Positions 8,767 through 35,474 of a stretch of 64,000 nt of DNA are shown here, piece by piece (positions within the stretch are counted from its first letter, which is position 1; each line of letters opens with the position of its first letter). The position numbers were made by a program, and so were the translations under genes. The stretch covers positions 2,816,001 through 2,880,000 of the forward strand of contig OZ253442.1 of assembly GCA_965261085.1 (NCBI GenBank). Direction: 5' to 3'. The notes under the pieces were generated by a model. The model worked only from the letters and a program-made list of their open reading frames with translations, had not been told where the DNA came from and did not search any database. The stretch is from a bacterium (GTDB taxonomy: Bacteria; UBA8248).

Positions 8767-9130
8767 GATTCTCCCCTGTGGTCAAAAAAAAATTAGAGCC
8801 CTCTGATTACCGAAAATTTGCGCGGCAACCGAGGGCGTGTCAGCCAAGAATCGGAGAACGAATTGAATCCACCATCAGCTTGCCTGGAGCCTCAAGCACG
8901 GGTTCAGAGGTGGCGGGTATGCGGGTGATGCGGGCGCCAACGGCCTGGCCGACGTCGTGGCTCGCCCGGCAGATGCAGATCATCACCGTAAATGGTGTCC
9001 CCTACCGCCTTGGCGAGGGCGTCTTCTTTAGGCTGAGAGCGACCGACAATTACCATTTCAGGTATGAATTCGCCACCCATTTATTTAAAGATGGAAACGA
9101 AGGTGATGAAATATCCCCAAACGATGTATC

Positions 9131-10129
9131 TTAACTTCGAAACTTGGAAACTTCGACCGCCTGGCCTGTGTCCGCACTCTCGACGACGGCCTCCAGGACA
9201 GCCACAACCTCAATGCCCTCCGGGCCGCTTACCTCGGGCTTGGCCCCTTCGCGGATGCATTTGGCGAATTCCGCCATCTGCTCGGCCATGCAATCGCCCG
9301 GCTCGCAGGGGAGTTCCTCGCGCGCCTGCTGGTCCACCTTCTGGAAGTAGAGTTTCGAACCTTCCTCCTCGCTCCAGGCGTTGGCCTGGGTGCCGAAGAC
9401 GGCATTCGAGCAGATCTTCGGTATGACGAAGGTCGAATTGATGTAGCCGAGCGGGCCGCTCTCGAATTCGAGAATGATAGACGTTACATCGTTGATATTT
9501 CCCTTTCCAAGGAGCTTTTTGCTGAACGCGCAAAGCCGCTTCACGGGACCTGCCAGGTAGTGCAGGTTATCCACCATGTGGACGCCCAGAGCCGTCATGG
9601 CGCCGGCCGGGCATTCGGCGGTGTCGTTCCGCCAGCCTTGGCGAGGGTTCTGCCCCCCGGCCAGAGAGAGGTTTCCCTCCACCTGATGGATCATCCCCAT
9701 CTCACCGTTGTCGATCATCTCGCGGAGGCGGCGGTTACCCCCCTGCTTGCGGCGATTATGGCCGATCTGGAGGGTGACGCCCGCCTTCTGTGTCGCCTCG
9801 TAGGCCTTGCGCCCGTCGGCGGCGGTCAGCGTGAGAGGTTTCTCGACAAACACGTGTTTTCCTGCGGAAGCCGCCTGGCGAATGATATCCACGTGGGTAG
9901 AGTGTGGGGTGGCTAGCAGGATCCCTTCCACCTCGGAATCGCTCAGCAATTCGTCCAAACTTGCCGCCTGGCGGCAACCGACCTTTTCTGCGAACGACTT
10001 GCGCCCTTCCTCGCTTCGCGCGAAACAGCTAACAACCTCGGCCGCTCCGCTGCGGTCCACTGAACCCGCCAGCATAGCCCCCCACCCACCAAGACCTACC
10101 GACGCCAGACGCACCTTATCTTCAGCCAC
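9131..10129 (-). CDS. Gfo/Idh/MocA family oxidoreductase
   Basis: VGLGGWG, ATPHSTH, AGKHVFVEKP, GVHMVD; GTG start after AAAGGAG. Confidence 0.9.
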   Translation of the reverse strand: MAEDKVRLASVGLGGWGAMLAGSVDRSGAAEVVSCFARSEEGRKSFAEKVGCRQAASLDELLSDSEVEGILLATPHSTHVDIIRQAASAGKHVFVEKPLTLTAADGRKAYEATQKAGVTLQIGHNRRKQGGNRRLREMIDNGEMGMIHQVEGNLSLAGGQNPRQGWRNDTAECPAGAMTALGVHMVDNLHYLAGPVKRLCAFSKKLLGKGNINDVTSIILEFESGPLGYINSTFVIPKICSNAVFGTQANAWSEEEGSKLYFQKVDQQAREELPCEPGDCMAEQMAEFAKCIREGAKPEVSGPEGIEVVAVLEAVVESADTGQAVEVSKFRS

Positions 10130-21605: not shown

Positions 21606-22847
21606 ATGCCCAGAACAATACAAGATCCGAGACTGCCTCCGCCATCAGGACCTTACTGTTACGCGTTTCGGGCGGGGAATTACATCTTTCTTGGCGGGAT
21701 GCCGGGCATCACGACGGAAGCGTTGATGGTCGATGGCATCCCGAATGGCCGAATGGCCGGAGAAACGCCCGGTCGGGCAGATATGGAAGCCCAGACACGC
21801 CAGGCCATAGAGGCCCTGAAACTCGCCGTTGAGATCGCCGGTGGTCAATGGAGTGACGTTCTTCGGCTAAATCATTTCCTCGACAGTTGGAGAGAGGTCG
21901 GGCCATTTGTCAAAGCGTACGAGAAATACCGTACCCCCGCCGTACCGGCTGACACGCTCGTCGGCTACGGCCTCTATATGCCGTCGATGATCATGGAAAT
22001 CGAAGGGCTGGCCGGCGCCGTAGAAACCAAACCACTCTTGCCTGTCGGGGAGCAGGCGCATGAGTATGCGCCGTCCAGTACCGGCAGGAGGATGGGCGAC
22101 TTGTTGTGCCTGAGTGCGCGGCTACCGATCGACGCCAAGGGTGAGGTCGTCTCGCCGGGGAACTCGAAGGCGCAGACCGAGGCTATTCTCGAGGGGCTTG
22201 GAGAAGTATTGTCGGAAAACGGCGGATCCTTAGGGGACATCATTCGCCTGCGGGTTTTTGTTCGTGACACGAGAGACGTGGAGGCGGTCGAAGCGGCAAT
22301 CGCCAACGCTTTTGCGGATCCGGGACCGGTCACGACGATCGTGACGGCGCCTTTGCCGATTCTCAAAACCGACGTAATGATAGAGCCGACCGCATACCTT
22401 GGTGAGAAGGAATATCGGACGGGACCGGGAAACGCCCGAGGCGTTTTGGCCGGTGAGTTGATGATCTCCAACGGAATCCTCAGCGTGGATGGCGAAGGTG
22501 GCGTGCGCGATCCCGGTGACATCCAGAAGCAGACGCGAAACGTCCTCGCCAACGTGGAACATCTTCTGAAGGAGTTCGACATGGAGGTGCCGGACGTCAC
22601 GCAATCCCAGGTGACGCTGACCGATTTCCGCGACTATGACGCCTACAACGCCCTTTACAGGAACTTCTTCGCCTTTCCGTTCCCCGCCAGGAACTCGGTC
22701 GAAGCCGCATTGGGGAAAATTTCGCATTACGGCTTGAAGTATCAGATCGAGGTTTCGGCAATCCGCAATGCCTCGAAAGAGGGGCTGGTCGTGACAGCCG
22801 CGGACAGTTACTACTTCAGGCGCATCGAAATGGAAGGCGGAGCGTAA
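21606..22847 (+). CDS. RidA/YjgF family protein with three tandem Rid domains
   Basis: Three repeats of ..QT..(L)..L..D(V/I)....F/T..D..; the third carries FPARNSV...IEV. Confidence 0.8.
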   Translation: MPRTIQDPRLPPPSGPYCYAFRAGNYIFLGGMPGITTEALMVDGIPNGRMAGETPGRADMEAQTRQAIEALKLAVEIAGGQWSDVLRLNHFLDSWREVGPFVKAYEKYRTPAVPADTLVGYGLYMPSMIMEIEGLAGAVETKPLLPVGEQAHEYAPSSTGRRMGDLLCLSARLPIDAKGEVVSPGNSKAQTEAILEGLGEVLSENGGSLGDIIRLRVFVRDTRDVEAVEAAIANAFADPGPVTTIVTAPLPILKTDVMIEPTAYLGEKEYRTGPGNARGVLAGELMISNGILSVDGEGGVRDPGDIQKQTRNVLANVEHLLKEFDMEVPDVTQSQVTLTDFRDYDAYNALYRNFFAFPFPARNSVEAALGKISHYGLKYQIEVSAIRNASKEGLVVTAADSYYFRRIEMEGGA

Positions 22848-22876
22848 ACCGAGGGTCTGGTCTACGAGCAACTGAT

Positions 22877-23098
22877 GTGGGCGACGGCGGGGGCGGACTA
22901 CAGGGCCGCGAGCGGCAGTTGTCCTTCGCGGCGGGCGAAACCGAGAAGACAGTGGCGGCCCACGGCGATGGGGCGGGCGAGGAGGAACCACCACGGCTCA
23001 GGCTCATCTCCACCAACCCGGACTCCGCCCCATGCTCATGCTTCGCACGGGACGTCCGCAACCTCGGCAAGGTGTTGTGGGTCGTGCGGTGGGTGTGA
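22877..23098 (+). pseudogene. S24 (LexA/cI-type) peptidase domain, C-terminal remnant
   Basis: PRLRLISTNPDSAPCSCFARDVRNLGKVLWVVRWV* resembles the S24 C-terminus (L.S.NP.Y......I.GKV.W). Confidence 0.5.
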
Positions 23099-23538
23099 AT
23101 ACCAGACACCGATACAGCAAGGGCCCGGAGCCGTCGCCATGATGGTGTGAGCGCCCACGGATTTTCCCCTTTCCCATGGATCGTACATATGCCTTTTTCG
23201 CCCGGTAGACGCGGAGAGGCGTTTTTCGCGGAGATAAGATCCTTCTATCCCTTTGATACTGTTGGGCTACATGCATTATCCCCATTCTCGTTTGGAATCC
23301 AGCTTCCGCAATATGTAATCAAAACGAAAGCGGATTCATTAAAACTTCAGCGCATTCCGGCGAATCCATGTCGGTTCATTACGTGGCCCTCATCCAATGT
23401 CCGGCCCGCAACGGCCTGCTTGCGGTCATGCTCCGGCGCCCGGCAACGTATATTCAGGAAGCACCGGTTCGCGCCACATGACGGCGTTTGATTCGCTCAC
23501 GCGGCCAGGAATCGTTGTTGGGACAAGTCAATTTTCGG

Positions 23539-23598
23539 TTGACAAGAACGGGAACGAGACCTATATTTATTAAAATATAAGAAATAATTTCTCTATAT
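23539..23598 (+). promoter_or_regulatory. Sigma70 promoter plus palindromic operator candidate for the IclR operon
   Basis: TTGACA (23539)-17 nt-TATATT, followed by the palindrome AGAAAT-A-ATTTCT. Confidence 0.6.
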
Positions 23599-23610
23599 GT
23601 GAGAAGTTAA

Positions 23611-24390
23611 ATGTCTACTTCTTCCCTGAAGACGATAGACAAAGCAATAGATCTCCTCTGGGCTATAGCCCATGGATCCGGCTCTTCTTCGGTGGAAGAG
23701 CTCTCCTCCGAGATCCAACTGCCCAAAAGTACGACATACCGATTCCTCAAGACCCTCCAAACCAGGGGCTTCGTGGACGCTTCCGCCGAATACGGAAAAT
23801 ACCGATTGGGGTCTTCCCTCTCCCTCCTCTCGAAAAATATTTCTCAGAACGGACAAAATGGAACCCTTTGCGAGCTTGCGCTTCCCGTCATGAGAAGGCT
23901 TACATTGGAAACGGGGGAAACAATTTTCTTGTGCATCAAATCGGGTCGGGAAACCATTTGCATCGAGTGCATAGAAAGTCGCCAATCGATCATCGCTCGT
24001 TTTTTTGTAGGAGAAGTGCGGCCTTTGCACGTTGGGGCGGCGTCGAAAGCCCTACTCGCCTTTTTGCCGGATCAGGACATCGAGACGATCATGCAGCAGA
24101 AACTATCGAGGGCGACAAAAAATACGATCACTGAGCCCGTCAAATTAAAAAAAGAGCTCAAAGAGATTCGTGAAAAGGGCCACGCGTACAGCGACCAAGA
24201 GTTCATTGTTGGGGCCAGGGCGATTTCCGCACCGGTGTTTGGTGAACGGGGTACCGTCGCGGCTTCCTTGACGCTCTCGGCTCCAGTTCACCGGATCGAA
24301 AAATCGAACCGGAAAATCCTTGCCGCCCATGTCGTCAGAGCCGCTCGAGAGGTTTCGGCGTCCCTGGGTTGGAAGGAAGCTGAAGCATAG
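23611..24390 (+). CDS. IclR family transcriptional regulator
   Basis: LPKSTTYRFLKTL, YRLG, TGETIFL, GAASKALLAF, AISAPVF. Confidence 0.93.
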   Translation: MSTSSLKTIDKAIDLLWAIAHGSGSSSVEELSSEIQLPKSTTYRFLKTLQTRGFVDASAEYGKYRLGSSLSLLSKNISQNGQNGTLCELALPVMRRLTLETGETIFLCIKSGRETICIECIESRQSIIARFFVGEVRPLHVGAASKALLAFLPDQDIETIMQQKLSRATKNTITEPVKLKKELKEIREKGHAYSDQEFIVGARAISAPVFGERGTVAASLTLSAPVHRIEKSNRKILAAHVVRAAREVSASLGWKEAEA

Positions 24391-24508
24391 AAATCCTGTT
24401 TTCAGGAAATCTGTGCGAATCCTCGTGATATGGAGTCTTGTCGTTGCTTCATCATCCATCCGGGAGTTCATGAAGGTACTTTGTCTACCCAACCAAGGAG
24501 GACAGAAA

Positions 24509-25477
24509 ATGATGCGCGCAATGAAGACGTTCATCAGGTTCGCAGTGCTGGTCATCGCCATTTGGGCGATGACGATTTCATCCGCCCAGGCTGCCAAGAA
24601 ATTCGTTACCATCGCCGGCGGCGCTTCGGGCGGAACGTACATCGTGGTCGCAACTGGAATGGCCAAGCTCTTGTCCAAATACGTTCCGGGGATGCGGGCG
24701 AACGCCGAGGTCACGGGAGGTGGTTTCGGCAATACGCGCCTCATCGGAACCAAGAGAGCCGATTTTGGTCTGACGACCCCGGACGCTGCCTTCTTTGCGG
24801 TGGAGGGAGGCGGGCGATTCAAGCCAGGAGAAAAATACAAGCTCCGCGCACTGATGAGCGGCCACGCCAGCATCCAGCATTTCGTGACGCTCAGGAAGTC
24901 GGGAATCAAGAGTTTGTATGACTATCGAGGAAAGCGTATCTCCATCGGCCAGCCGGGAAGCTCCACGGCGGCGATGGGTGTGGCAATGCTGGAGGTCCTG
25001 GGGATCAGCACCAAAAAGTTCGCCCGAACGGATCATTTGACCCAAACTGAAGCTGTTGCGGCGCTGAAGGACGGAACGGTAGACGCAACCATTCAGCTCG
25101 CCGGAATTCCGGGCGGTGCGGTAAAAGATATCACTTCGACGCATGACGTGAGATTGGTCTCCGTCTCCATGGAAGACATGAAGAAAATCAACAAGGCGCA
25201 TCCATACTGGGCGCCTTCCCGCATACCCAAGGGCACTTACGGCGGCATGAAGGGAGACGTCGGGGCGATGGCGTCGGCGACCATCGTCATCACCCACGCG
25301 GACACGGACAACGCGACGGTCTACGCAGTGACAAAAACGGTACTTGAGCACACCGATGAGCTCGGAGCCATTCACCGCGCCGGGTTGAAGTACAAACTTC
25401 CCGGCTCCGCCGGGAACATTCCCATTCCCATGCATCCCGGCGCCGCGCGTTACTTCAAGGAAAAGGGCATTCAGTAA
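24509..25477 (+). CDS. TAXI-family TRAP transporter solute receptor
   Basis: Signal peptide (AQA), GASGGTY, GKRISIGQPGS, IPMHPGAARYFKEKG; RBS AAGGAGG. Confidence 0.92.
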   Translation: MMRAMKTFIRFAVLVIAIWAMTISSAQAAKKFVTIAGGASGGTYIVVATGMAKLLSKYVPGMRANAEVTGGGFGNTRLIGTKRADFGLTTPDAAFFAVEGGGRFKPGEKYKLRALMSGHASIQHFVTLRKSGIKSLYDYRGKRISIGQPGSSTAAMGVAMLEVLGISTKKFARTDHLTQTEAVAALKDGTVDATIQLAGIPGGAVKDITSTHDVRLVSVSMEDMKKINKAHPYWAPSRIPKGTYGGMKGDVGAMASATIVITHADTDNATVYAVTKTVLEHTDELGAIHRAGLKYKLPGSAGNIPIPMHPGAARYFKEKGIQ

Positions 25478-25495
25478 ATTGTCGTATGAGCACAT

Positions 25496-25527
25496 CGGCG
25501 CCCCCGCCTGAGGGCGGGGGCGCCGAC
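25496..25527 (+). terminator. GC-rich stem-loop between the TAXI receptor and the permease (mRNA stabiliser/attenuator)
   Basis: TCGGCGCCCCCGCC-TGAG-GGCGGGGGCGCCGA; no U tract. Confidence 0.5.
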
Positions 25528-25547
25528 CACCTCAAGGGAGTCGTGCA

Positions 25548-27554
25548 GTGGACGCGAATGGTGATCCGAAGCAATCGCCGGATCCGGAAGAGGCGGGGGC
25601 GATCGTTCACGGCCGGGCCCGCCCGGACAACGCCTTCGAGCGTTTTCTCAACCCGATCATCACCTGGTTGGCCATTGCGCTGGCGGTTTTCCACCTGTAC
25701 ACGGGTTTCGCCGGTGCGTACGGAGCGCTCATTCAACGTTCGATTCATTTAAGTCCGATCCTGGTTCTCACATACCTTCTTTACCCAACTGCAACGAACA
25801 AACGGTTCTATATTTTCGGTCGACTTCTCGATGCCATTTTCATTATCGGAAGTGTCACCATAGGCCTTTACATTATCGATCAATACCATGTTCTCACCTT
25901 TCGAGACGGGAATCCGAATCTGCCGGATATGCTCCTCGGAATCCTCGCAATCATCTTGGTTCTCGAAGCAACCCGGAGGGTCATCGGCTGGACGTTGCCG
26001 TTGGTTGCCGTAGCATTCGTGATCTACGCCTATTGGGGCCCGAACATGCCGGGCGTCTTCGGGCACCGCGGTTACGACTGGGGACGGATATTGCAGCACA
26101 CCTACACCAGCACGGAAGGTATTTATGGGCTGCCGATCGGAGTTTCAGCGACATTCGTCATTCTGTTCATCATCTTCGGGGCTATTCTTCAAGAGACCGG
26201 AGCGGGTCGATTTTTCATTGATCTCGCCTTCGCGCTTTTCGGTCGAGTGCGAGGCGGGCCGGCAAAAGTCGCGGTTGTGGGGAGCACTCTTTTCGGCACG
26301 ATCTCAGGCAGCGCCACGGCCAACGTTGTGGGCACAGGGACATTTACCATACCGATGATGAAGCGTCTCGGGTACCAACCCACCTTTGCCGCTGCGGTCG
26401 AGGCGGTGGCGTCGACCGGCGGCCAGTTCATGCCCCCCATCATGGGTGCGGCTGTTTTCGTCATGATTGAGATGATCCATGTCACATATAGAGAGATTAT
26501 CGTCATGGCGCTGCTGCCCGCTATCCTCTTTTACGTCGCGGTGTTCATCGCCGTAGACCTCGAAGCCGTGCGCCTGGGGCTTCGCGGGATGGATCGATCG
26601 GAGCTCCCCAAGGCGACGCGACTCCTCGCGGAAGGCTGGCCCTTTCTCGCCCCCCCGATCATTCTCGTATTCATGTTGATGTACATGTATTGGTCCCCGA
26701 CAAAAGCGGGTTTTTGGGCGATTGTGTCTACTGTTGCCGTCAGCTCCTTAAAAGCCAGCAGTCGGTTGACGCCCCGGCAGATTCTCGGCGCGCTTCGTGC
26801 GGGAACAATGGCCACGTTGCAAGTCGCGCTCGCCTGCGCGTGTGCGGGAGTCGTGGTGAGCGTCTTCACGCTGACGGGCCTGGGGGCGAAGGTTTCTTTC
26901 GCTCTCCTTGAACTGGCCAATGAAGCTTTGCTTCCGATGCTGGTGATCGGCATGGTGACCAGCATTCTGCTCGGGATGGGGATGCCCACAACGCCGGCCT
27001 ACATTATTCTGGCGGTACTGATTGCTCCTTCCCTGGTCAAGGCCGGAGTGCCCCAGATATCGGCGCACCTCTTCGTCTTCTATTCCGGCATTATTTCGGC
27101 GATCACGCCACCGGTCGCATTAGCCGCGTACGCAGGCGCCGCCATAGCCAAAGCGCCTCCGCTGCGGACGGGATTCCTGGCAATGCGCATCGGGCTGGCG
27201 GCGTTCATCGTCCCGTTCATGTTCGTATACAGCCCCGGCCTCGTTTTTCACGGAACCCCTTGGGAAGTGGTTTACTCGATTGGGACTTCCCTCCTGGGGA
27301 TATTGGCCATCACTTACGGTGTACAGGGAAGAATGTTGCGGGAGCTCTACATCGTGGAGCGCATGATTTTGGTGGTCTCCGGGCTTTTGTTTATCCCTTA
27401 CTCGATTTCAGCGAACGGAATCGGCCTCTTCCTGTTCCTGGCCTTGGTCGCATGGCAACGCTGGAGATCCGTAGACGTTTCCTTACGTCTTCGGCGCGGA
27501 GCGGGAGCGGAGGAGGTTACGTCTTCTTACCCATCACGAGAGGAACAGCGATGA
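25548..27554 (+). CDS. TRAP transporter fused 4TM/12TM permease
   Basis: LEATRR, RGGPAKVAV, EAVASTGGQFMPPIMGA, LGMGMPTT, ITPPVALAAY. Confidence 0.93.
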   Translation: MDANGDPKQSPDPEEAGAIVHGRARPDNAFERFLNPIITWLAIALAVFHLYTGFAGAYGALIQRSIHLSPILVLTYLLYPTATNKRFYIFGRLLDAIFIIGSVTIGLYIIDQYHVLTFRDGNPNLPDMLLGILAIILVLEATRRVIGWTLPLVAVAFVIYAYWGPNMPGVFGHRGYDWGRILQHTYTSTEGIYGLPIGVSATFVILFIIFGAILQETGAGRFFIDLAFALFGRVRGGPAKVAVVGSTLFGTISGSATANVVGTGTFTIPMMKRLGYQPTFAAAVEAVASTGGQFMPPIMGAAVFVMIEMIHVTYREIIVMALLPAILFYVAVFIAVDLEAVRLGLRGMDRSELPKATRLLAEGWPFLAPPIILVFMLMYMYWSPTKAGFWAIVSTVAVSSLKASSRLTPRQILGALRAGTMATLQVALACACAGVVVSVFTLTGLGAKVSFALLELANEALLPMLVIGMVTSILLGMGMPTTPAYIILAVLIAPSLVKAGVPQISAHLFVFYSGIISAITPPVALAAYAGAAIAKAPPLRTGFLAMRIGLAAFIVPFMFVYSPGLVFHGTPWEVVYSIGTSLLGILAITYGVQGRMLRELYIVERMILVVSGLLFIPYSISANGIGLFLFLALVAWQRWRSVDVSLRLRRGAGAEEVTSSYPSREEQR

Positions 27555-28936
27555 CGCCCCAAGACGTAAACCGCGATTACAACTTGATGAACGCAAAAGT
27601 CGTGACGCCCGAAGAGATTCGCCACGCCAACGTGGCTCTGCGCGACGGGCAGATTGCTTCAGTCGAAGATGGCCCTCTTCCCGGGAGAAGCGCGAAGGAG
27701 ATCGATCTCGGGGGGAAATTCCTTCTGCCGGGAGTCATCGACCCCCACGTACACCTGCGCGACATGGGGGAATCCGAAAAGGAAGACTTCACCACCGCAA
27801 CCGCCTGCGCCGCCGTCGGCGGAGTGACGACGGTGATGCAAATGCCCAACGGCATACCTGATATTCTCACGGTCGAGGATTTTCGCGAACGAAAGTCGCT
27901 CATCGAAAATCGCACGTACGCAGATATCGCCCTCTATGCCTGGGCTTGCGAGCAGAACCGAAAAGAGCTCCATCACTTCCGAGAGTTGGGCGCCATCGGA
28001 TACAAGATATTCACCGCTGTAACGGGGGCCTTCAAAGAAGATTTCGAGGATTACATTACAGTCGACATAGACAAGCTCTTCCTCCTGTTCGAAGAAATCG
28101 CGGGCTTCGATGGACAGATTGGAATCCACGCCGAATCAAATCCGATTCTCGAGCTCTTCACCGAGCGATGCAAGGAAAATATGAAACCGGACATCGACGC
28201 TTGGCGTCTGAGTCGGCCGAATTTCGCCGAGGACCTCGCGGTCTTCGATGCCCTCACCCTATCCACGGCTACGGGGGCCCGTTTGCATATTTGTCACGTC
28301 ATCGGCGCCGAGGCGGTTCAACTCATCCGCAACGCGAAGAAAAAAAATCCGAAGATCACCTCCGAAGTGGCGCCGTGCAATCTGCTCTTGTGCGACGAGG
28401 ACCTTCACGCGGTGGGTTCATGGGGAAAATTCAGCCCGCCCGTCAAGACGGCCGCCGATCGCGATGCCCTCCGTGAAGGGTTCTTGGACGGGACCATCGA
28501 CACCATGGGAACCGACCACGCCCCCCAGATAAACGAGCTGAAGAATAACGAAAATATATGGATCGCCCCTCCCGGCGGACCCGGCCTCGAAATTTTTCTG
28601 CCTTCGATGCTGAACGAAGTGAATCAAGGTCTCCTGACGCTCCCGACGCTTGTTTCACGTTTGTGCGAGGCGCCGGCGAGGATTTTCCGCCTTTTCCCGA
28701 GAAAGGGGACGATCCGTGCGGGAGCGGACGCCGATCTTGTGGTGGTCGATATGGAGCGGACCGTACTCGTCGATCCGGCGAAGGGAAAAAGCAAAGGAAA
28801 GTACACGGCCTTTGCCAACAGAACTTTTGTGGGAGCGCCGGTGATGACCTTTCTGCGCGGGGAGCTGATCGCCAAGGACGGAGATTTGGTGGTCCCACCG
28901 GGCAGCGGCCGTTTTGCTCAACCATCGCTGGATTAA
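27551..28936 (+). CDS. Cyclic amidohydrolase (dihydroorotase/allantoinase-like)
   Basis: PGVIDPHVH, GGVTTVMQMPN, YKIF, HAE, HICHV, TDHAP, KGTI..GADADL. Confidence 0.88.
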   Translation: MTPQDVNRDYNLMNAKVVTPEEIRHANVALRDGQIASVEDGPLPGRSAKEIDLGGKFLLPGVIDPHVHLRDMGESEKEDFTTATACAAVGGVTTVMQMPNGIPDILTVEDFRERKSLIENRTYADIALYAWACEQNRKELHHFRELGAIGYKIFTAVTGAFKEDFEDYITVDIDKLFLLFEEIAGFDGQIGIHAESNPILELFTERCKENMKPDIDAWRLSRPNFAEDLAVFDALTLSTATGARLHICHVIGAEAVQLIRNAKKKNPKITSEVAPCNLLLCDEDLHAVGSWGKFSPPVKTAADRDALREGFLDGTIDTMGTDHAPQINELKNNENIWIAPPGGPGLEIFLPSMLNEVNQGLLTLPTLVSRLCEAPARIFRLFPRKGTIRAGADADLVVVDMERTVLVDPAKGKSKGKYTAFANRTFVGAPVMTFLRGELIAKDGDLVVPPGSGRFAQPSLD

Positions 28937-28986
28937 GGTTGTGATTCCATTCATTCCTCCAAACAACGGAAAACCGCGGAGAAGAA

Positions 28987-30387
28987 ATGAAAGATCAGTG
29001 CCTGTTGCTTCGTGATTATTACGCCACGCCCGAGATGCGGACTATCTGGACCGAAGAGAACATGGTCCAAAAATGGCTCGACGTAGAGGCGGCCATCGCC
29101 TGGGCGCAAGGGGAAGTGAAGATGATTCCGAAATGGGCGTCCAAGGCCATCGTGCGCAGTTGCGACGTGAAGAAGGTCACTCCCCTTCTCGTCTTCCGCG
29201 AGTTCGAGAAGGCGCGCCACTGGATCGTCTCGCTGGTTCATGCTTTCACGAAGGTGGCGGGACCGGAAGGGGAATATTTCCATCTCGGAACGACGACCCA
29301 GGACATCCTGGACGGCGGTCTGACGCTGCAGATCCGCGAGTCTTACGTCCTCCTTCTCACCGAGCTTCGAGAGCTCGAATCCATCCTCGTCCGTCTGGCC
29401 CGACGTCATCGCACCACCGTCATGGCTGGTCGAACGGAGGGTCAGCAGGCCTCTCCCGTCACATACGGCCAGAAGATCGCGATTCTTTGCAGCGAGCTCC
29501 GGGATCACATCGAGCGACTCAAGGAGTGCAGCAAGCGGCTTTTTTACGCGAACGTCTCTTCTGGAACCGGCGCTCAGTCCACTTTCGTCTACCTAAGCGA
29601 CCTTCACACCACCCGGCGGCTGGAAACGTTGGTGGCCAAGCGGCTGGCGCTCCAAGTTCCCTACATCAGCATGCACCATCGGACGGACCGCTTTGCGGAA
29701 TTGCTCAACATTCTCGCGCTGATCAATTCAACACTGGGGGAAGCGGGGATGGATCTTCGCGACCTCCAGCGGACCGAAGTGGCCGAAGTGGCGGAGCCCT
29801 GGGACATCGAACACCAGCACAGCAGCAGCACCTTCCCCCACAAACGCAATCCTGAGACAAGTGAATGGCAGGAAGGACTCGCCAAGCTCTCACGGACAAA
29901 CGCACTTGCCATGATGGACGTCCAGCAACAGCACGAGCGTGACGCGAGCCGCTACGCCGTGGAATTCTCGCGAATCGCCGAGAGCTTCGGTTTGGCATCA
30001 TCCGCGGTCGCGGCGGCCAAGCGGATTTACGGCGGCCTTGTCGTCGACAAAAAAGCGATGCGGCGCAATCTCGAGCTTCAACGAGAGCTCACCATGACCG
30101 AAGCGGTTATGCTGCGCCTGTATCAGAAGACGAAGCGAAAGGCCGAAGCGCATACCATCTGCCATGACGCCGCCCAGCAGGCGAGGGAAGAGGGACGCTC
30201 GGTGAAGGAATGCCTCCTCGCGTATCCGGTCGCGCGAAAGCACCTCACCGCCGAGGAAATCGACGAAGTCACAAAACCGGAAAACTACATCGGCACCTGC
30301 CCGCAGCAAGTAGACCGGGCGCTGAGGCGAATCGCTCAACTCAGGCGCTCGGACGGGCGGTACCTGCGGATGGGAAAGAAGGGATGA
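28987..30387 (+). CDS. Adenylosuccinate lyase-like protein (fumarase/aspartase superfamily) with an atypical active site
   Basis: HLGTTTQDI, GRTEGQQA, SSSTFPHKRNP, HERD. Confidence 0.85.
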   Translation: MKDQCLLLRDYYATPEMRTIWTEENMVQKWLDVEAAIAWAQGEVKMIPKWASKAIVRSCDVKKVTPLLVFREFEKARHWIVSLVHAFTKVAGPEGEYFHLGTTTQDILDGGLTLQIRESYVLLLTELRELESILVRLARRHRTTVMAGRTEGQQASPVTYGQKIAILCSELRDHIERLKECSKRLFYANVSSGTGAQSTFVYLSDLHTTRRLETLVAKRLALQVPYISMHHRTDRFAELLNILALINSTLGEAGMDLRDLQRTEVAEVAEPWDIEHQHSSSTFPHKRNPETSEWQEGLAKLSRTNALAMMDVQQQHERDASRYAVEFSRIAESFGLASSAVAAAKRIYGGLVVDKKAMRRNLELQRELTMTEAVMLRLYQKTKRKAEAHTICHDAAQQAREEGRSVKECLLAYPVARKHLTAEEIDEVTKPENYIGTCPQQVDRALRRIAQLRRSDGRYLRMGKKG

Positions 30388-31457
30388 GCACAGCCGATAC
30401 GATCACCTTGGCCGTCGTGGGAGACTTTTGGGTTAACCGCCCGCTCCCTCGAGATGAACCCCGCCTCGAAATGGTCCTCGATCAGCTTCGAGCGGCGGAT
30501 CTTTCGGTGTGTGTTTTAGAGATGCCGCTTTCGCAGCGGGGCGCGCCGGCCGAAAAGATCGTCCGTATGCGAGCGCCTCCGGAGCGCGCGGAAGATCTGC
30601 ATCACCTGGGGGTCGATTGCGTCACGATAGCGAACAACCACATGCTCGACTACGGTCCCGACGCCCTCCTGGACACCTTGGACATTTTGCGAAGCGAAGG
30701 AATCCCCTTCGTGGGGGCGGGCCGGGACATCGAAGAAGCGTCCCATCCGTTGGTTCTTGAGGCAAAGGGCATCCACGTGACTTTTCTTGCGTGTGCGGCC
30801 ACACTTCCTCTGGGAAGCTCGGCGGGAGAAGACAGGCCGGGCGTGAATCCACTGCACGTCTTCACGGCCTGGGTGGTCGAGTCGAGCGCACGGACCCAAG
30901 AGCAACCGGGCACTCCACCTCCCGTTATGACTTTCTCCTCCCCCGAGGACATCCAGACCCTCCAGAACGCGGTGCGCAAAGCGAAAAGTTCCTCCGATCT
31001 CGTGGTCGTCCTGCCCCACTGGGGGTTGCCGAACGTGAGCGCCCTCATGGATTACCAACGCGACGCCGGACACGCTCTCGCCGCAGCGGGCGCAGACCTC
31101 ATCGTCGGCCACCACGCGCATTGCATCCAACCGGTGGAGATGGTCGAGAGCACGCCGATTATCTACGGTGTGAGCAATTTCCTGTTTCACGAGCTTCCCG
31201 AAGGCATGTCCAGGAACGTGTACGATTTCATGTCGAAAGACGAACTCCTGGTGGAAGCCCGTCTCGGGGTGGAGGGAGTGCGCGAGCTGGCGCTCGCGCC
31301 GCTCGTTTTGAACTCGTCCGGACACCCTCGCCTCGCCGGACCGGAGGAAACGAAGCGGATCGTGGGAGAAGTTTCCGACTTGTCGGTGAAATACGGAACG
31401 GTGATCGAGTTCGCCGGCAGCCGTGGCTTGGTCAGGCTCAGGGAAAAGGCGGCCTGA
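30384..31457 (+). CDS. CapA/PgsA-family metallophosphatase-fold protein 1
   Basis: VGD, ANNHMLDYG, GAG, HWG, GHHAH, YGVSNF. Confidence 0.88.
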   Translation: MSTADTITLAVVGDFWVNRPLPRDEPRLEMVLDQLRAADLSVCVLEMPLSQRGAPAEKIVRMRAPPERAEDLHHLGVDCVTIANNHMLDYGPDALLDTLDILRSEGIPFVGAGRDIEEASHPLVLEAKGIHVTFLACAATLPLGSSAGEDRPGVNPLHVFTAWVVESSARTQEQPGTPPPVMTFSSPEDIQTLQNAVRKAKSSSDLVVVLPHWGLPNVSALMDYQRDAGHALAAAGADLIVGHHAHCIQPVEMVESTPIIYGVSNFLFHELPEGMSRNVYDFMSKDELLVEARLGVEGVRELALAPLVLNSSGHPRLAGPEETKRIVGEVSDLSVKYGTVIEFAGSRGLVRLREKAA

Positions 31458-31481
31458 TTGTTACAATAGGAGTGAGACAGG

Positions 31482-32588
31482 ATGTCCAACGAAGGGATGG
31501 TTTCCATAGCGTTGGCCGGGGACGCGTTCATCGGCAAGAAGCTTCCTCGTCCGGGAGAGCCGGGAGCGGAACCCGTGCGCGCCCTTTTCGAGCGCATGGC
31601 GGGGGCCGACGTGACGTTCATCAACCTGGAGAGCCCGTATTCCGAAAGGGGCTATCCGGCCGAGAAATACACGTTTCTGCGGTCCCATCCTTCCCTAATC
31701 GATGAGTTGGACGAGATGGGGGTGGACGTTGTCACCCTTGCTAACAATCACATGCTCGACTACGGCTACGACGCGCTTTTCGACACCCTGTCTCTTCTCG
31801 ACGCGAAGGGGGTCCGGCGCGTGGGAGCAGGCCGGAATTTGCAGGAGGCGTACGCGCCGGCCATCATTCAGAAGGCCGGGGTACGCGTGGCTTTCCTGGG
31901 CTTCGCCTCCACCCTTCCGCTCGGCTGCTCCGCGGGCGACGAGCGTCCCGGCCTCGCACCCATCCATATCTTTTCCGCTTTCGTCCTCGAGCCGAGCCCG
32001 AGAACACAGGAACAACCCGGGACGCCCCCTCCGGTGAAAACTTTTCCGCTTCAGGCCGATCTCACGCGCATGCAAAAAGTCGTGGCTGCGACGAAGCGAG
32101 AGGCGGACGTTGTGATTATCGCCGGTCATTGGGGGCTGGCAAGCCGCTACGACCTGGCGGAATACCAGACGTGTGTCGGCCGCGCGCTCGTGGATGCGGG
32201 CGCGGATGTGGTTCTGGGGCATCACTCCCACACGCTTCAGGCGGTCGAGATCTACAAAGGAAAGCCGATCCTCTACGGAGTAGGGAATTTCATCTTCCAC
32301 GAACTGCCCGATGTCGGAAACTCCGAACTGTCCTACGGTGGCGTGATGACGCCGGAACTCATTAAAACGCGCATGCCACGGGAGACGGCTCTCTTTGAAC
32401 TCACGGTCGAAAAGGATGGGGTAGCGGACTTAGGCTTCGTTCCGGTTTCGATTGACGATTCAGGCAATCCCGGCTTAGTCGAAGGCGAAAGAGCCGAAGG
32501 GGTGATCGACCTCGTGGAGAGGCTCTCGTCGGAGTTCACTACCCGAATCACTCGGAAGGATGGCATGGGGAAATTCGTTCTGGGATAG
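31482..32588 (+). CDS. CapA/PgsA-family metallophosphatase-fold protein 2
   Basis: AGD, NLE, ANNHMLDYG, HWG, GHHSH, YGVGNF. Confidence 0.9.
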   Translation: MSNEGMVSIALAGDAFIGKKLPRPGEPGAEPVRALFERMAGADVTFINLESPYSERGYPAEKYTFLRSHPSLIDELDEMGVDVVTLANNHMLDYGYDALFDTLSLLDAKGVRRVGAGRNLQEAYAPAIIQKAGVRVAFLGFASTLPLGCSAGDERPGLAPIHIFSAFVLEPSPRTQEQPGTPPPVKTFPLQADLTRMQKVVAATKREADVVIIAGHWGLASRYDLAEYQTCVGRALVDAGADVVLGHHSHTLQAVEIYKGKPILYGVGNFIFHELPDVGNSELSYGGVMTPELIKTRMPRETALFELTVEKDGVADLGFVPVSIDDSGNPGLVEGERAEGVIDLVERLSSEFTTRITRKDGMGKFVLG

Positions 32589-32747
32589 AAGGCTTTCCGG
32601 GGTCTTCGCCGCATTGACCCCCACCCGGGGGAACGCACTCCAGGGGGCCGGCGGCGCATCGTCGACCCGGGCGCTTTCATCAAGAGTCGCCCTGCATCTT
32701 CCATCAGAAGAAAACGATAGTTCATTCATGAGCGATGAGGATTGGCA

Positions 32748-33536
32748 ATGGACATGGACCTGGAGGGGAAGGTTGCTCTCGTCACCGGAGGGACAAGCGG
32801 GATTGGAAAGGCGACGGTATTGGCCTTGGCGGACCAAGGCGCGAAGGTCGCCTTCTGCGGTCGGGATCAAGCCCGCCTGGACACCACCCTGAAGCTGGTC
32901 GAGGAGCGGGGCGGTGTGGGTCTCCCTCTTCGCGCGGACATCAGCGTGGAGGAGCAAGCGTCGGAGCTCGCGTCTCGTGTGGTCGAGTCTTTTGGGCGGC
33001 TAGACATCCTCGTGAACAACGCCGGACGCGCGGCGCCGAGTTCGCTTCCCTCGCTGACGCCGGCGCAGATTCGAAAGACCGTGGACACGAAGATCGTCGG
33101 TTATCTCGTGATCACGCGCGAGGCGGCGCATTTCATGAAAAAGCAACATGGCGGACGGATCATCAACATGGTCGGAGGAACCGGAAAAGAACCCCTGCCC
33201 GGCGTTCTGGGAGGAAGCACAACGAACGCAGCGCTTTTGGGCCTGAGCAAAGGACTCTCCCAAGCCCTGGCCAAAGACCATATCCTGGTGAACACGATCT
33301 GTTTGGGACAGATCGATACGCCCATGCAGGACTGGATGACAGAGCAACTCGCCAAAGAACGAGGGATATCGATCGACGAAATGCGGCGGGCCCGTGAATC
33401 ACAAATTCCCCTCGGACGATTCGGCTCTGCCGAAGAAGTGGCGGGGCTGGCGGTGTTTCTGGCGTCGGTTCACGGGAGCTACATCACGGGAGCAACGATC
33501 AACGTCGACGGCGGAAAATTCCATTCGATCTTCTGA
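32748..33536 (+). CDS. SDR family oxidoreductase
   Basis: TGGTSGIG, LVNNAG, IPLGRFG, YITG..INVDGG; no canonical YxxxK. Confidence 0.88.
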   Translation: MDMDLEGKVALVTGGTSGIGKATVLALADQGAKVAFCGRDQARLDTTLKLVEERGGVGLPLRADISVEEQASELASRVVESFGRLDILVNNAGRAAPSSLPSLTPAQIRKTVDTKIVGYLVITREAAHFMKKQHGGRIINMVGGTGKEPLPGVLGGSTTNAALLGLSKGLSQALAKDHILVNTICLGQIDTPMQDWMTEQLAKERGISIDEMRRARESQIPLGRFGSAEEVAGLAVFLASVHGSYITGATINVDGGKFHSIF

Positions 33537-33944
33537 ACATTTGCGCGCTGTAGCCGGACAATAACTATTGCCGATAGCCTGGATAATCCCTCGAGTTTCC
33601 AGCCGTTTTTTGGCCGGAATATTTCGCCCGCATAGAGGTGGTGAGGTGTTTTTGCTAACCGTGGAATCTCGATATCCCGTTGATATCGTTGGGAAACATT
33701 CATTATTCTCATTCCCGGTCGGGGTTCGCTTTCCACAAAATGAAATTAAAACGAAAGCGGAGGGATTCAAACTCCCGCGTATCCCGGTGATCCCCTGTCG
33801 CACTGTCCTTTAAAGTCCGGCCCGCAACAGCTTGCTTCAGGCTATGCTCCGGAGCCCCGCAACATCATTCAGGAACTATCGGTCCATACCTCATGACTGC
33901 GCCCGGTTCGCGCTTACGGCGCAGTCGACCACAGCGACGATGAT

Positions 33945-34010
33945 CTGCTGAGCTTGGCTTGCGGCCCGTGATCACCCAGGCATTGTCCTTGTTCGGCGAT
34001 AGAAGTAGCG
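33945..34010 (-). pseudogene. Possible tyrosine integrase micro-remnant
   Basis: Minus frame reads PNKDNAWVITGRKPSS, similar to the DNPWVI.GRKPG segment of some phage-type integrases. Very short match. Confidence 0.3.
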
Positions 34011-34112
34011 TTCGTAATTTATTCCGCTGGAAGATAGCCGCCGGAGCCTACGTCACCCCGGCCCGCCGCACAGTAAGAAACGCCGGCCGGTATGGGGGAT
34101 AACGGCGCCGCT

Positions 34113-35474
34113 TCAGGCCGCCGGCTGCCGTGCTCCTCCGCCTCTCGCGGATCGACTGCGATGACGGTATTTACCGGGCCGGCCGGTCCTGGGTTCGGGC
34201 CTGTTACGGGGCTTCCGAGTTCCGCCATCGGGTCTGCGCCTGCCGGGCTGATCCGGTGAGGCCAGCTTGGGATCGGCCGGACCGGGTTCGTCACCAATCA
34301 CCGTCAGCCGGCACTTGATCAGCTTTTCGATATCGCTCAGATAGGCCCGCTCGCTCGGATCGCAAAAGGCAATCGCCGCACCGCCCGCACCGGCACGCGC
34401 TGTCCGCCCGATTCGATGGACATAATTTTCCGGCTCGTTGGGGAGTTCGTAATTGATGACATGGCTGACGGAATCCACATCGATGCCTCGGGCCACGATA
34501 TCGGTCGCCACCAGGACCCGCGCCTGGCCGTCGCGGAATCGTTTGAGGGCGCGCTGGCGGGCGCCCTGGGATTTGTTGCCGTGGATCGCCTCGGCTGCGA
34601 CGCCGCCCTTGCCGAGCTGTTCTGCGACACGGTTGGCATGGTGCTTGGTGCGCGCAAAGACAAGCACTCGCGACATGGCGGGATCCTTGAGGATGGTGTC
34701 GAGCAAAACCCGCTTTCCGGCGGTGGCGACGTGATAAATGCTCTGCTCGACACAATCGATCGGCGTTGCCTGGGGCGTCACCTCCACCCGCACCGGATCG
34801 GTCAGGATATCAGCCGACAGCCGGGAAATTTCGCTGGGCATGGTAGCGGAAAAAAGCAACGACTGGCGAGACTTGGGCATCGCCGCCATGATCTTGCGGA
34901 CATCGTGCACAAAACCCATATCGAGCATCCGGTCGGCTTCATCGAGGACCAGGAATTCGATCGCATCGAGCCGGACATGCCGCTGCTCCATGAGATCGAG
35001 CAGCCGCCCGGGCGTCGCAATCAGAATGTCGAGCCCACGAACCAGCGCAGTGACCTGCGGCTTCTGGCTGACACCACCGAAGATCACGGTCTGACGCAGC
35101 GCGAGGTGCTTGCCGTAGGCGCGGAATTCCTCACTGATTTGGATAGCAAGCTCACGGGTCGGCGCCAGGACCAGGGCGCGCGGTTTGCGGGCTGCCTTGT
35201 TGGCGCCGTTGTGATAGCGGTTTTTGACATTGTTGCGGTTGTTACGGGTGGCGCCCTCGTCGCCGCGTGGCCGCGACAACTGCTGAAGAATGGGCAGCGC
35301 AAAAGCCGCGGTTTTGCCGGTGCCTGTCTGGGCGATACCCAGCATATCACGCCCGGCGAGAAGCTCCGGGATGGCTCGCGCCTGGATTGGCGTTGGGGTT
35401 ACGTGGTCTCTGCCGGTCAACGCACGCAGTATCGGATCGGTCAAATCGAGTTCAGAGAATTTACGAATAGTCAC
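34113..35474 (-). CDS. DEAD-box RNA helicase (RhlE-like)
   Basis: Q motif PTPIQ, AQTGTGKT, PTRELA, DEAD, SAT, ARGID, HRIGRTAR. Confidence 0.95.
   Translation of the reverse strand: MTIRKFSELDLTDPILRALTGRDHVTPTPIQARAIPELLAGRDMLGIAQTGTGKTAAFALPILQQLSRPRGDEGATRNNRNNVKNRYHNGANKAARKPRALVLAPTRELAIQISEEFRAYGKHLALRQTVIFGGVSQKPQVTALVRGLDILIATPGRLLDLMEQRHVRLDAIEFLVLDEADRMLDMGFVHDVRKIMAAMPKSRQSLLFSATMPSEISRLSADILTDPVRVEVTPQATPIDCVEQSIYHVATAGKRVLLDTILKDPAMSRVLVFARTKHHANRVAEQLGKGGVAAEAIHGNKSQGARQRALKRFRDGQARVLVATDIVARGIDVDSVSHVINYELPNEPENYVHRIGRTARAGAGGAAIAFCDPSERAYLSDIEKLIKCRLTVIGDEPGPADPKLASPDQPGRRRPDGGTRKPRNRPEPRTGRPGKYRHRSRSARGGGARQPAA

Follow-up and report, generated by a model that had tools for sequence, protein, structure and literature searches.

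A candidate catabolic operon with a Glu-type lyase and two MslH-like PGA_cap proteins in one genus of Nitrospinota

This report concerns eight genes on a 64,000-nucleotide stretch of bacterial DNA (contig OZ253442.1 of assembly GCA_965261085.1, positions 2,816,001 to 2,880,000 of the forward strand), which is referred to here as the window and whose own numbering is used throughout. The genes lie on the + strand at positions 23611–33536 and encode, in this order, an IclR-family regulator, a solute-binding protein and a fused permease of the tripartite ATP-independent periplasmic (TRAP) transporter type, a cyclic amidohydrolase, a lyase of the aspartase/fumarase superfamily, two proteins of the PGA_cap family (PGA_cap-1 and PGA_cap-2) and a short-chain dehydrogenase/reductase (SDR). 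In the reading that we favour, they would form an operon for the uptake and breakdown of a carboxylated cyclic amide or ureide. Open reading frames together with Pfam and NCBIfam matches returned the gene order given in a preliminary description of this DNA, and gene starts were refined by reading the sequence and its translations. All eight genes are co-oriented, and the 4-nt overlaps reported in that description are present as two ATGA junctions, one between the TRAP permease and amidohydrolase genes (27551–27554) and one between the lyase and PGA_cap-1 genes (30384–30387). The remaining intergenic gaps measure 118, 70, 50, 24 and approximately 159 nt. A GGAGG-like site precedes the ATG-ATG of the binding-protein gene, and GAGGA stands 6 nt 5′ of the ATG of the SDR gene.

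The genes are preceded by a sigma-70-type promoter (TTGACA-17-TATATT, 23539–23567, + strand) that agrees with the consensus at 11 of 12 positions and is the top match in the interval 22800–34200. When the upstream regions of nine loci from the window's genus were aligned, the −35 hexamer was invariant and the −10 element largely conserved in all nine. Just 3′ of the −10 element lies a palindromic candidate operator for the IclR-family regulator (23579–23593, not assigned to a strand). The palindrome was originally drawn at 23575–23598 and is imperfect over that full span; its core, AGAAAT-A-ATTTCT (23580–23592), is a perfect 6-1-6 palindrome in the window, and the half-sites AGAA (23580–23583) and TCT (23590–23592) are invariant in 9/9 loci while the centre and the flanks vary. 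The core presumably resembles the IclR box of Escherichia coli. It can also be seen that a 19-nt segment overlapping the right half of the operator candidate (23584–23602) has an inverted copy, complementary at 18 of 19 positions, 2.9 kb downstream at 26482–26500, inside the TRAP permease gene. By a rough estimate, chance alone would yield about 0.01 such pairs in 11.6 kb. In 8/8 related loci this internal copy persists with one or two differences, perhaps owing to coding constraint; it might serve as an auxiliary operator. A search of 22800–34200 against Rfam gave no match at E ≤ 0.1.

The regulator (23611–24390, 259 aa), encoded by the first gene, carries the domain pair HTH_IclR (PF09339, 45.8 bits) and IclR_C (PF01614, 137 bits), and the effector domains of AllR and IclR are among its best solved relatives. 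It lies below the NCBIfam equivalog cut-offs for BhcR (173 against 350 bits), IclR (137 against 380) and AllR (123 against 406). The binding protein (24509–25477, 322 aa) belongs to the TAXI family, with 269.6 bits for TIGR02122 against a cut-off of 84.35 and 237 bits for NMT1_3; its N-terminus resembles a signal peptide, and solved TAXI proteins match it at approximately 150 bits. The permease (25548–27554, 668 aa) is of the fused TRAP type, scoring 676.1 bits for TIGR02123 against a cut-off of 320.65, and 332 bits for DctM. The genome has a transporter-rich profile for a member of the Nitrospinota. Thirteen of its TAXI binding-protein genes are clearly over the Pfam cut-off, and a fourteenth, partial one is also over it at 30.5 bits.

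The amidohydrolase gene (27551–28936, 461 aa) encodes an Amidohydro_1 (PF01979) protein of the dihydroorotase/allantoinase/hydantoinase group. Its motifs DPHVH, GYKIF, IHAES, ICHV and GTDHAP are intact and correspond to the metal site of the family (HxH, carboxylated Lys, His, His and Asp, respectively). None of the narrower models accepts the protein: the allantoinase model TIGR03178 gives 316.2 bits against a cut-off of 357.85 and NF004839 gives 287.6 against 631, and the scores for D-hydantoinase and ErtD are likewise under the equivalog cut-offs. Only the broad subfamily-domain model pyrC_multi is exceeded (309.5 against 279.05 bits). Among solved structures the L-selective hydantoinase 1GKR comes closest (279 bits), ahead of dihydroorotases at approximately 200 bits, and a better pyrC (420 bits) is encoded elsewhere in the genome, together with two more paralogues. 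Allantoin was considered as a substrate and is unlikely, on the reasoning that it lacks a carboxylate for the TRAP receptor and that allantoate has no β-carbon for an elimination.

The lyase (28987–30387, 466 aa) combines Lyase_1 (PF00206, 125.7 bits) with ADSL_C. Its best NCBIfam match, the synthase XcbD, reaches 315 bits against a cut-off of 600, and the purB model TIGR00928 gives 304.7 bits against 326.2. The scores are also below the cut-offs of the models for carboxymuconate lactonising enzyme (CMLE; NF006554, 279 against 595 bits, and TIGR02426, 186 against 355.75 bits) and of that for nitrosuccinate lyase. A purB proper (511.7 bits) is present elsewhere in the genome, and the cluster contains no protocatechuate (pca) or itaconate genes. 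The closest solved relatives are 3c8t, Tad1 and the CMLE 1re5 (199–230 bits), and the sequence places the protein in the CMLE/Tad1/CreD-like clade of the aspartase/fumarase superfamily. Its SS loop reads SSSTFPHKRNP (GSSxxPxKxN type), in which S280, S281, K286 and N288 are invariant in 50/50 sequences, and it retains the arginine of the HERD motif (Arg360 in Tad1). In Tad1 this arginine is catalytic and the SS loop has been described (PMC11880804).

What sets the protein apart is the motif GRTEGQ, which places a glutamate (Glu151) where 3c8t has histidine and Tad1 asparagine. The corresponding residue is the conserved histidine of the GRTHGQ segment in adenylosuccinate lyase (ADSL) and a tryptophan in CMLE. 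Among the 120 best homologues of the lyase the position is occupied by Glu in 54, His in 50, Gln in 15 and Ser in one. In a quick tree of 56 rows, for which support comes from the Shimodaira–Hasegawa-like approximate likelihood ratio test (SH-aLRT) only, as for all trees here, the 22 Glu-type rows, including that of the window, all fall on one side of a single branch (SH-aLRT 97). As far as can be told, this Glu-type branch of the ADSL/CMLE-like lyases has no assigned function.

PGA_cap-1 (30384–31457, 357 aa) and PGA_cap-2 (31482–32588, 368 aa) score 209.8 and 223.5 bits for the PGA_cap domain against a cut-off of 27, and share 43% identity. Among solved structures MslH is the sole relative of either (E 2e-29 for PGA_cap-1 and 1.3e-23 for PGA_cap-2); it inverts the α-carbon of a residue whose free carboxylate binds metal (PMC10406935). 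Seven of eight key residues of MslH are kept in both proteins, the eight being the metal ligands Glu44, Asn87, His259 and His261 and the dyads His88/Asp91 and His295/Asp11; both acid/base His/Asp dyads are among those retained. The MslH equivalog model NF038314 gives 110.6 and 112.5 bits against a cut-off of 700. CapA carries an N-terminal membrane anchor. The N-termini of both window proteins are free of any hydrophobic stretch, and the conserved GD motif is reached already at residues 13–14. A search with the PgsB model TIGR04012 gave no match in this 96%-complete, single-contig genome, with Bacillus subtilis as positive control. On sequence grounds, then, these are cytoplasmic, MslH-like proteins and not capsule genes; the term 'CapA-like' under which they were first described remains correct for the domain but not for the kind of protein.

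The genome contains five PGA_cap matches in total, and the three genes outside the window adjoin ATP-binding cassette (ABC) transporters of peptide type and other types, GntR regulators, dehydrogenases and an M24 peptidase/creatinase-like gene. In a quick PGA_cap tree, PGA_cap-1 sits in a clade of its own with P0022 and P0014, and PGA_cap-2 in a separate clade with P0001–P0003. Complex prediction for the two window proteins returned 'weak support' for a heteromer, with a median of 0.58 (0.60, 0.58 and 0.58) where the best of three controls gave 0.00; at least 87% of contacts are common to the runs, and the partner pLDDT (predicted local distance difference test) is at least 90. In the benchmark of this procedure the mark was reached by 116/157 solved complexes and by 2/215 mismatched pairs, and the range up to 0.60 held 18/157 solved complexes together with both of the passing mismatches. 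The predicted interface may simply copy the homodimer interface of the paralogues.

The last gene (32748–33536, 262 aa) encodes a member of the adh_short family (156 bits; adh_short_C2 also matches) in which the cofactor motifs TGGTSGIG and VNNAG can be read. The name SDR, as given in the preliminary description, thus stands for the family, and the form is atypical: the catalytic Ser, Tyr and Lys of FabG (2uvd) align to Gly, Gly and Asn. Its best solved relatives are 6jh7 (164 bits) and YwfH (3u49, 134 bits), and all three proteins have lost the classical triad and carry an upstream Lys-x3-Tyr. By contrast, the classical Tyr-x3-Lys is present in the three other SDRs that were aligned, two encoded beside the PGA_cap paralogues of this genome and one in locus L018. 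Membership of a BacG/YwfH-like group is by likeness, there being no curated model for the group. BacG is a C=C reductase, and we consider it more likely that the window protein would also reduce a C=C bond than that it acts as an alcohol dehydrogenase. The literature that we found on BacG and AerF held nothing usable on their chemistry. The spacer between the PGA_cap-2 and SDR genes is variable: L015 lacks approximately 127 nt of it (32600–32726), and L009 and L011 have a version shortened by about 45 nt. The window's spacer folds no better than shuffled sequences (z −0.16).

Searching with PGA_cap-2 gave 10 loci at 88–98% identity, in metagenome-assembled genomes (MAGs) labelled Nitrospinota, Nitrospinaceae or simply 'bacterium'. 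The full set of eight genes is found in the same order in eight of the 10, and the other two loci end at contig ends. In a phylum set of 51 genomes the lyase is present in 10/23 species of the window's genus, with the window genome included, and in 0/28 genomes of other genera. Homology to the window begins at 23496 and ends at approximately 33613–33629 in four other species of the genus (L007, L010, L011 and L012), where the chromosomal context is different. The cluster thus has the behaviour of an accessory cassette. In one genome (G438) two full copies, L007 and L009, lie on one contig about 140 kb apart and in opposite orientation. In L006 the PGA_cap-1 match (8728–10000) comes in two pieces of 76% and 97% identity, possibly through a frameshift or a MAG assembly error.

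The preliminary description had named co-occurrence of the genes elsewhere as one of the points on which the proposal would turn. The full set was found within one genus only, and sub-modules of it recur beyond. Among the 80 metagenome loci listed for the lyase, two, L084 and L086, have a Glu-type enzyme, and more Glu-type loci may exist. In both, an Amidohydro_1 gene whose product is 47–48% identical to that of the window stands upstream of the lyase gene, both proteins find their best match within the window genome in the window's own copies, and an MmgE/PrpD gene follows directly 3′ of the lyase. L086 also has a GntR regulator, two TctC receptors and an aldehyde dehydrogenase, and its MmgE/PrpD protein has as best solved relative an iminodisuccinate (IDS) epimerase, at 115 bits against 84 for IRG1. 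The breakdown of IDS reportedly requires, to go by the title of a 2004 paper of Cokesa that PMC7347537 cites, an epimerase and a stereoselective C–N lyase. Since the closest relatives of the amidohydrolase and the lyase sit together in two of two Glu-type metagenome loci, the two enzymes are probably functionally linked, as judged from gene neighbourhood. His- and Gln-type relatives of the lyase are found beside TctABC, MmgE/PrpD, fumarase, UbiD or molybdenum-hydroxylase genes, without an amidohydrolase. A plasmid search with the lyase gave nothing above 39% identity.

PGA_cap genes also occur in nutrient-uptake settings of other kinds. Among 68 PGA_cap loci outside the genus, a gene for an SBP_bac_5 protein (peptide/opine-type) is present in seven and one for an ABC ATPase in eight. 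ATP-dependent hydantoinase/oxoprolinase genes accompany a carboxylate transporter in two of the three closest loci (L016–L018). One of these, L017, from a SAR324 MAG, has on one strand between 1946 and 12212 the series HyuA, HyuB, TAXI, fused TRAP, opine dehydrogenase, PGA_cap and ornithine cyclodeaminase, its PGA_cap protein being 44% identical to PGA_cap-2. It is a candidate for a second, differently built pathway of ring opening, PGA_cap and C–N cleavage. L018 has TctC, TctA and HyuA with PGA_cap. Two plasmids show the same kind of setting: in Sagittula the neighbours of a CapA-family gene are a PuuE allantoinase gene, TRAP genes and an asparaginase-domain gene, and in Cupriavidus they are TctC, MmgE/PrpD and SDR genes.

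Four metatranscriptome runs from two studies hold 11–20% of the sequence words sampled from the operon. Contigs assembled from these RNA libraries, mostly 90–99% alike to the window, lie on seven of the eight genes (all except the SDR gene); the TAXI gene is covered by contigs of 1.1–1.2 kb in 4/4 runs, and contigs bridge the junctions IclR–TAXI, TRAP–amidohydrolase, amidohydrolase–lyase and lyase–PGA_cap-1. This fits natural co-expression of the operon of a close relative; no meaning attaches to stretches that the contigs leave bare. A peak in depth at 32784–33167 was discarded as a sign of SDR expression, since it is due to foreign, loose-ended contigs that share a 33-nt motif (32994–33026).

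The order of the genes, with importer and regulator first and the enzymes after, points to catabolism of an anionic compound, and the recurring core of amidohydrolase and Glu-type lyase suggests ring opening to an N-substituted amino-dicarboxylate followed by β-elimination. From the families, their arrangement and their conservation we therefore favour, with a probability of roughly 55%, the reading of the eight genes as a catabolic operon under IclR control for a carboxylated cyclic amide or ureide, present in one Nitrospinota genus as an accessory cassette. In the proposed scheme the TAXI protein and the fused TRAP permease would import an anionic (carboxylated) cyclic amide, ureide or lactam, whose ring the binuclear-metal amidohydrolase would open to give an N-carbamoyl or otherwise N-substituted amino-dicarboxylate. 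The PGA_cap pair, possibly as a heteromer, might then invert the α-carbon beside the free carboxylate and so funnel all stereoisomers to the lyase, which would β-eliminate the nitrogen (or oxygen) substituent to leave an unsaturated dicarboxylate of the fumarate type. The BacG/YwfH-type SDR would reduce a conjugated C=C bond, either in the elimination product or in an unsaturated ring prior to hydrolysis. IclR, bound at the palindrome just 3′ of the −10 element, may repress its own operon until substrate or product is present.

The stereo-inverting role of the PGA_cap pair is held to be less likely than the scheme as a whole and is offered by analogy. It is proposed because the sister clusters L084 and L086 have an IDS-epimerase-like gene in the place that the PGA_cap pair holds in the window, and because an N-carbamoyl or N-acyl amino acid offers local chemistry like that on which MslH acts. 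A more specific form of the idea, which we regard as doubtful, is that the heteromer is a metal-dependent epimerase for small N-substituted amino-dicarboxylates and belongs, with a Glu-type C–N lyase, the ring-opening amidohydrolase and a BacG-type ene-reductase, to a new pathway. Such a pathway would start from a cyclic ureide of natural origin, or from an aminopolycarboxylate or opine in its lactam form. If this were true, the MslH/CapA fold would for the first time be given a role on small molecules, and would here replace the IDS-epimerase-type MmgE/PrpD enzyme of the sister clusters.

Several observations weigh against the favoured reading or narrow its basis. Promoter-like sites number four in 22800–34200 where shuffled sequences give a mean of 3.4, and so are not above chance. 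The RNA contigs are no proof of one continuous transcript, and some DNA may be present in RNA libraries. L084 and L086 are 64–67% identical and hence represent little more than one independent lineage, and the three amidohydrolase homologues (46%, 46% and 37% identity) whose longest contigs have the same sizes as those of Glu-type lyases (18724, 25340 and 17083) are an indirect sign of linkage between the two enzymes. Close homologues of the lyase are present in two of 401 genomes from the class of a Hyphomicrobiales MAG (G001), both of them His-type and without an amidohydrolase, and the Glu-type query P0145 found nothing in 400 genomes from the class of a Gammaproteobacteria MAG (G003), one genome being unscored. 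A window-like amidohydrolase or lyase was found within 5 kb in none of the 68 PGA_cap loci outside the genus (tblastn with a panel of 22 proteins), so the link from the PGA_cap genes to the pathway rests on one lineage and on analogy. The ligand His261 of MslH aligns to Gly, in an HWG motif, in both PGA_cap proteins, and the metallophosphoesterase fold of the family leaves a hydrolytic role equally open. The clade of the lyase, finally, also holds a lactonising enzyme, a nitrite lyase and a decarboxylase, which makes C–N cleavage with release of fumarate one option only; the fumarase/aspartase superfamily of the initial assignment is retained, whereas its fumarate-releasing C–N elimination cannot be taken as given.

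A hydrolytic PGA_cap pair would leave the operon as it is and change one step. The two proteins would be a new N-carbamoyl- or N-acyl-amino-acid amidohydrolase (a 'carbamoylase') in a route like that of hydantoinase and carbamoylase, with the lyase acting on the freed amino-dicarboxylate or on another intermediate. The step is vacant, as Pfam and NCBIfam identify no classical carbamoylase or amidase in the cluster, and the company of PGA_cap and CapA-family genes elsewhere agrees with such a role: an asparaginase-domain gene and the PuuE allantoinase gene on the Sagittula plasmid, and an M24 peptidase/creatinase-like gene and peptide-type and other ABC transporters beside the paralogues in this genome. 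PGA_cap belongs to the metallophosphoesterase fold, members of which are hydrolases (PMC10406935). Yet the sole relative characterised, as identified by sequence, is an epimerase, both of its acid/base dyads are kept in the window proteins, and we know of no amide hydrolase in the PGA_cap family, nor does a family listing give one. We consider the hydrolase version doubtful. Unlikely, in our estimate, is a reductive route for orotate, dihydroorotate or 5-carboxymethylhydantoin, in which the SDR would reduce the ring, the amidohydrolase would produce N-carbamoyl-aspartate and the lyase would split this into fumarate and urea. The score over the pyrC_multi cut-off (309.5 against 279) and the hydantoinase as closest solved relative are what such a route would predict of the amidohydrolase; N-carbamoyl-aspartate, as an N-substituted aspartate, is in general terms the substrate type of an ADSL-like lyase, anionic substrates suit a TRAP system, and a BacG-like SDR could carry out the conjugate reduction. 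Against this, the allantoinase model outscores the dihydroorotase model, and the urea released would be wasted as a nitrogen source, since urease alpha was not found in the 96%-complete genome. The route also leaves the two PGA_cap proteins without a role, as it does the IDS-epimerase-like protein of L084/L086 and the aldehyde dehydrogenase of L086, and to our knowledge no carbamoyl-aspartate lyase has been described.

The remaining two explanations dispense with catabolism or with the pathway itself. If the lyase ran in the direction of addition, as ethylenediaminedisuccinate (EDDS) lyase and XcbD do, the operon could be biosynthetic and build an aminopolycarboxylate or opine-like metallophore or osmolyte from a precursor imported by the TRAP system, with tailoring left to the remaining enzymes. 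Superfamily members are generally known to catalyse reversible additions, the best NCBIfam match of the lyase is a synthase (XcbD, 315 bits) and it is in antibiotic biosynthesis that the SDR has its solved relatives. The XcbD match is, however, far under its cut-off of 600, no exporter, ligase or synthetase was identified in the cluster by Pfam or NCBIfam, a high-affinity importer with IclR at the head of the operon is a typical catabolic layout, and receptors for uptake (TctC) as well as an aldehyde dehydrogenase are encoded in the sister clusters; we hold this explanation to be quite improbable. Least probable of all is that the genes are unrelated neighbours, namely extra copies of pyrC and purB, CapA genes of the capsule type and an unspecialised SDR gene that happen to lie next to a transporter. 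This would agree with the public names of their homologues (adenylosuccinate lyase, allantoinase/dihydroorotase and poly-gamma-glutamate synthesis protein), which routine annotation would probably assign here too, and with the confinement of the full combination to one genus. It sits badly with two 4-nt overlaps behind one conserved promoter, with an identical order in 8/8 loci that escape truncation at a contig end, those in another chromosomal setting included, and with the recurrence of the amidohydrolase–lyase pair in distant organisms. The housekeeping purB and pyrC are encoded elsewhere, PgsB was not found and the lyase lacks the ADSL histidine.

The favoured reading, an uptake and degradation operon for a carboxylated cyclic amide or ureide, is built of parts from known superfamilies in a familiar type of operon (TRAP importer, IclR and enzymes), and three of its enzymes are uncharacterised variants. 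No gene of the operon reaches any curated equivalog cut-off of NCBIfam, and only the subfamily-level models for TAXI, fused TRAP and pyrC_multi are passed. A full-text literature search found no characterised pathway of matching composition and we know of none with such a combination of genes, in agreement with the preliminary description, where none was recognised. That description had also proposed a complete pathway; of this, an uptake-plus-degradation cassette for an N-heterocyclic or N-substituted carboxylate is supported, and the readings of the lyase, the CapA-like proteins and the SDR are corrected as set out above.

Cytoplasmic PGA_cap proteins are numerous, with 1852 matches at E ≤ 0.001 among 8000 candidates scored. 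Their genes occur in nutrient-uptake clusters, both in the window genome and on plasmids, and the sole characterised relative that we found is a lasso-peptide epimerase. The operon sets a PGA_cap pair and a Glu-type lyase beside a dedicated binding protein and a regulator, which are handles for naming the substrate. It further shows that heterotrophic cassettes form part of the accessory gene content in members of a Nitrospinota genus. Should the favoured reading be wrong, the cluster would be an ordinary orphan catabolic operon.

The cassette is bracketed by two copies, in the same orientation, of a dispersed repeat (left copy 23196–23447 and right copy 33622–33901, both + strand). Two direct repeats, D1 and D3, pair the left copy with 33673–33863 at 74–83% identity over 128 and 52 nt. 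The repeat is approximately 200–300 nt long and occurs at 44 places in the genome, in both orientations and at 69–88% identity, for example at G000:C1:790200, 1163365, 3370441, 3714995 and 4085317 and in a dense group at 2442–2486 kb. Related genomes have the left copy only at loci with the same chromosomal surroundings as the window (L006, L008 and L009). The repeat has no Rfam match, and the conserved RNA fold given by RNAalifold is unconvincing (−5.06 kcal/mol, covariation term −0.37); it could be an element like a miniature inverted-repeat transposable element, a protein-binding repeat or something else. Directly upstream of the cluster, after a branched-chain-type ABC transporter, a gene at 21606–22847 encodes a 413-aa protein with three tandem RidA/L-PSP domains. 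It precedes the cluster only in the same three loci, L006, L008 and L009, and therefore lies outside the cassette.

Comparison with known systems shows where each part of the operon is conventional and where it departs. Like other TAXI-TRAP systems (for glutamate and keto acids) and IclR-type control (AllR, IclR and BhcR), the window has transporter subunits that are both over the NCBIfam cut-offs and a regulator that has both IclR domains and a palindromic site close to its promoter; unlike them, its regulator is under all equivalog cut-offs, and the solved TAXI proteins match at only about 150 bits. The lyase has its best solved relatives in the CMLE/Tad1/CreD/3c8t branch and keeps the SS loop and the HERD arginine of that branch, but differs in Glu151 and in scoring under the cut-offs for CMLE, purB, nitrosuccinate lyase and XcbD. 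The SDR shares the loss of the triad and the Lys-x3-Tyr with its top solved relatives, BacG/YwfH of the bacilysin pathway and 6jh7, whereas the identity is moderate and the context in the window appears catabolic rather than one of antibiotic biosynthesis.

At the level of whole pathways, three systems come closest. Hydantoin utilisation and reductive pyrimidine catabolism also open a ring with a cyclic amidohydrolase of the same superfamily, and the stereo-inverting enzyme and the C=C reduction of those pathways have plausible counterparts in the window. The window cluster has, according to Pfam and NCBIfam, no carbamoylase of nitrilase or M20 type, no Asp/Glu-type racemase and no dihydropyrimidine dehydrogenase, and has a fumarase-superfamily lyase instead. 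MslH, the C-terminal Trp epimerase of a lasso peptide with a calcineurin-like fold, shares seven of eight metal and acid/base residues with the PGA_cap pair, is likewise cytoplasmic and needs no organic cofactor; the window proteins are shorter (357 and 368 against 440 aa), have Gly in place of His261 and are two paralogues in a transporter-led operon with no lasso-peptide genes nearby. The degradation of IDS in Agrobacterium tumefaciens BY6 offers a similar overall plan, in which an epimerase of the MmgE/PrpD type supplies a stereoselective C–N lyase whose substrate is an N-substituted aspartate, and the sister clusters L084 and L086 repeat this plan in pairing MmgE/PrpD with a Glu-type lyase. 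In contrast, the window cluster has two MslH-like PGA_cap genes in place of MmgE/PrpD, and adds to the IDS plan a ring-opening amidohydrolase, a BacG-type SDR and a TAXI-TRAP importer.

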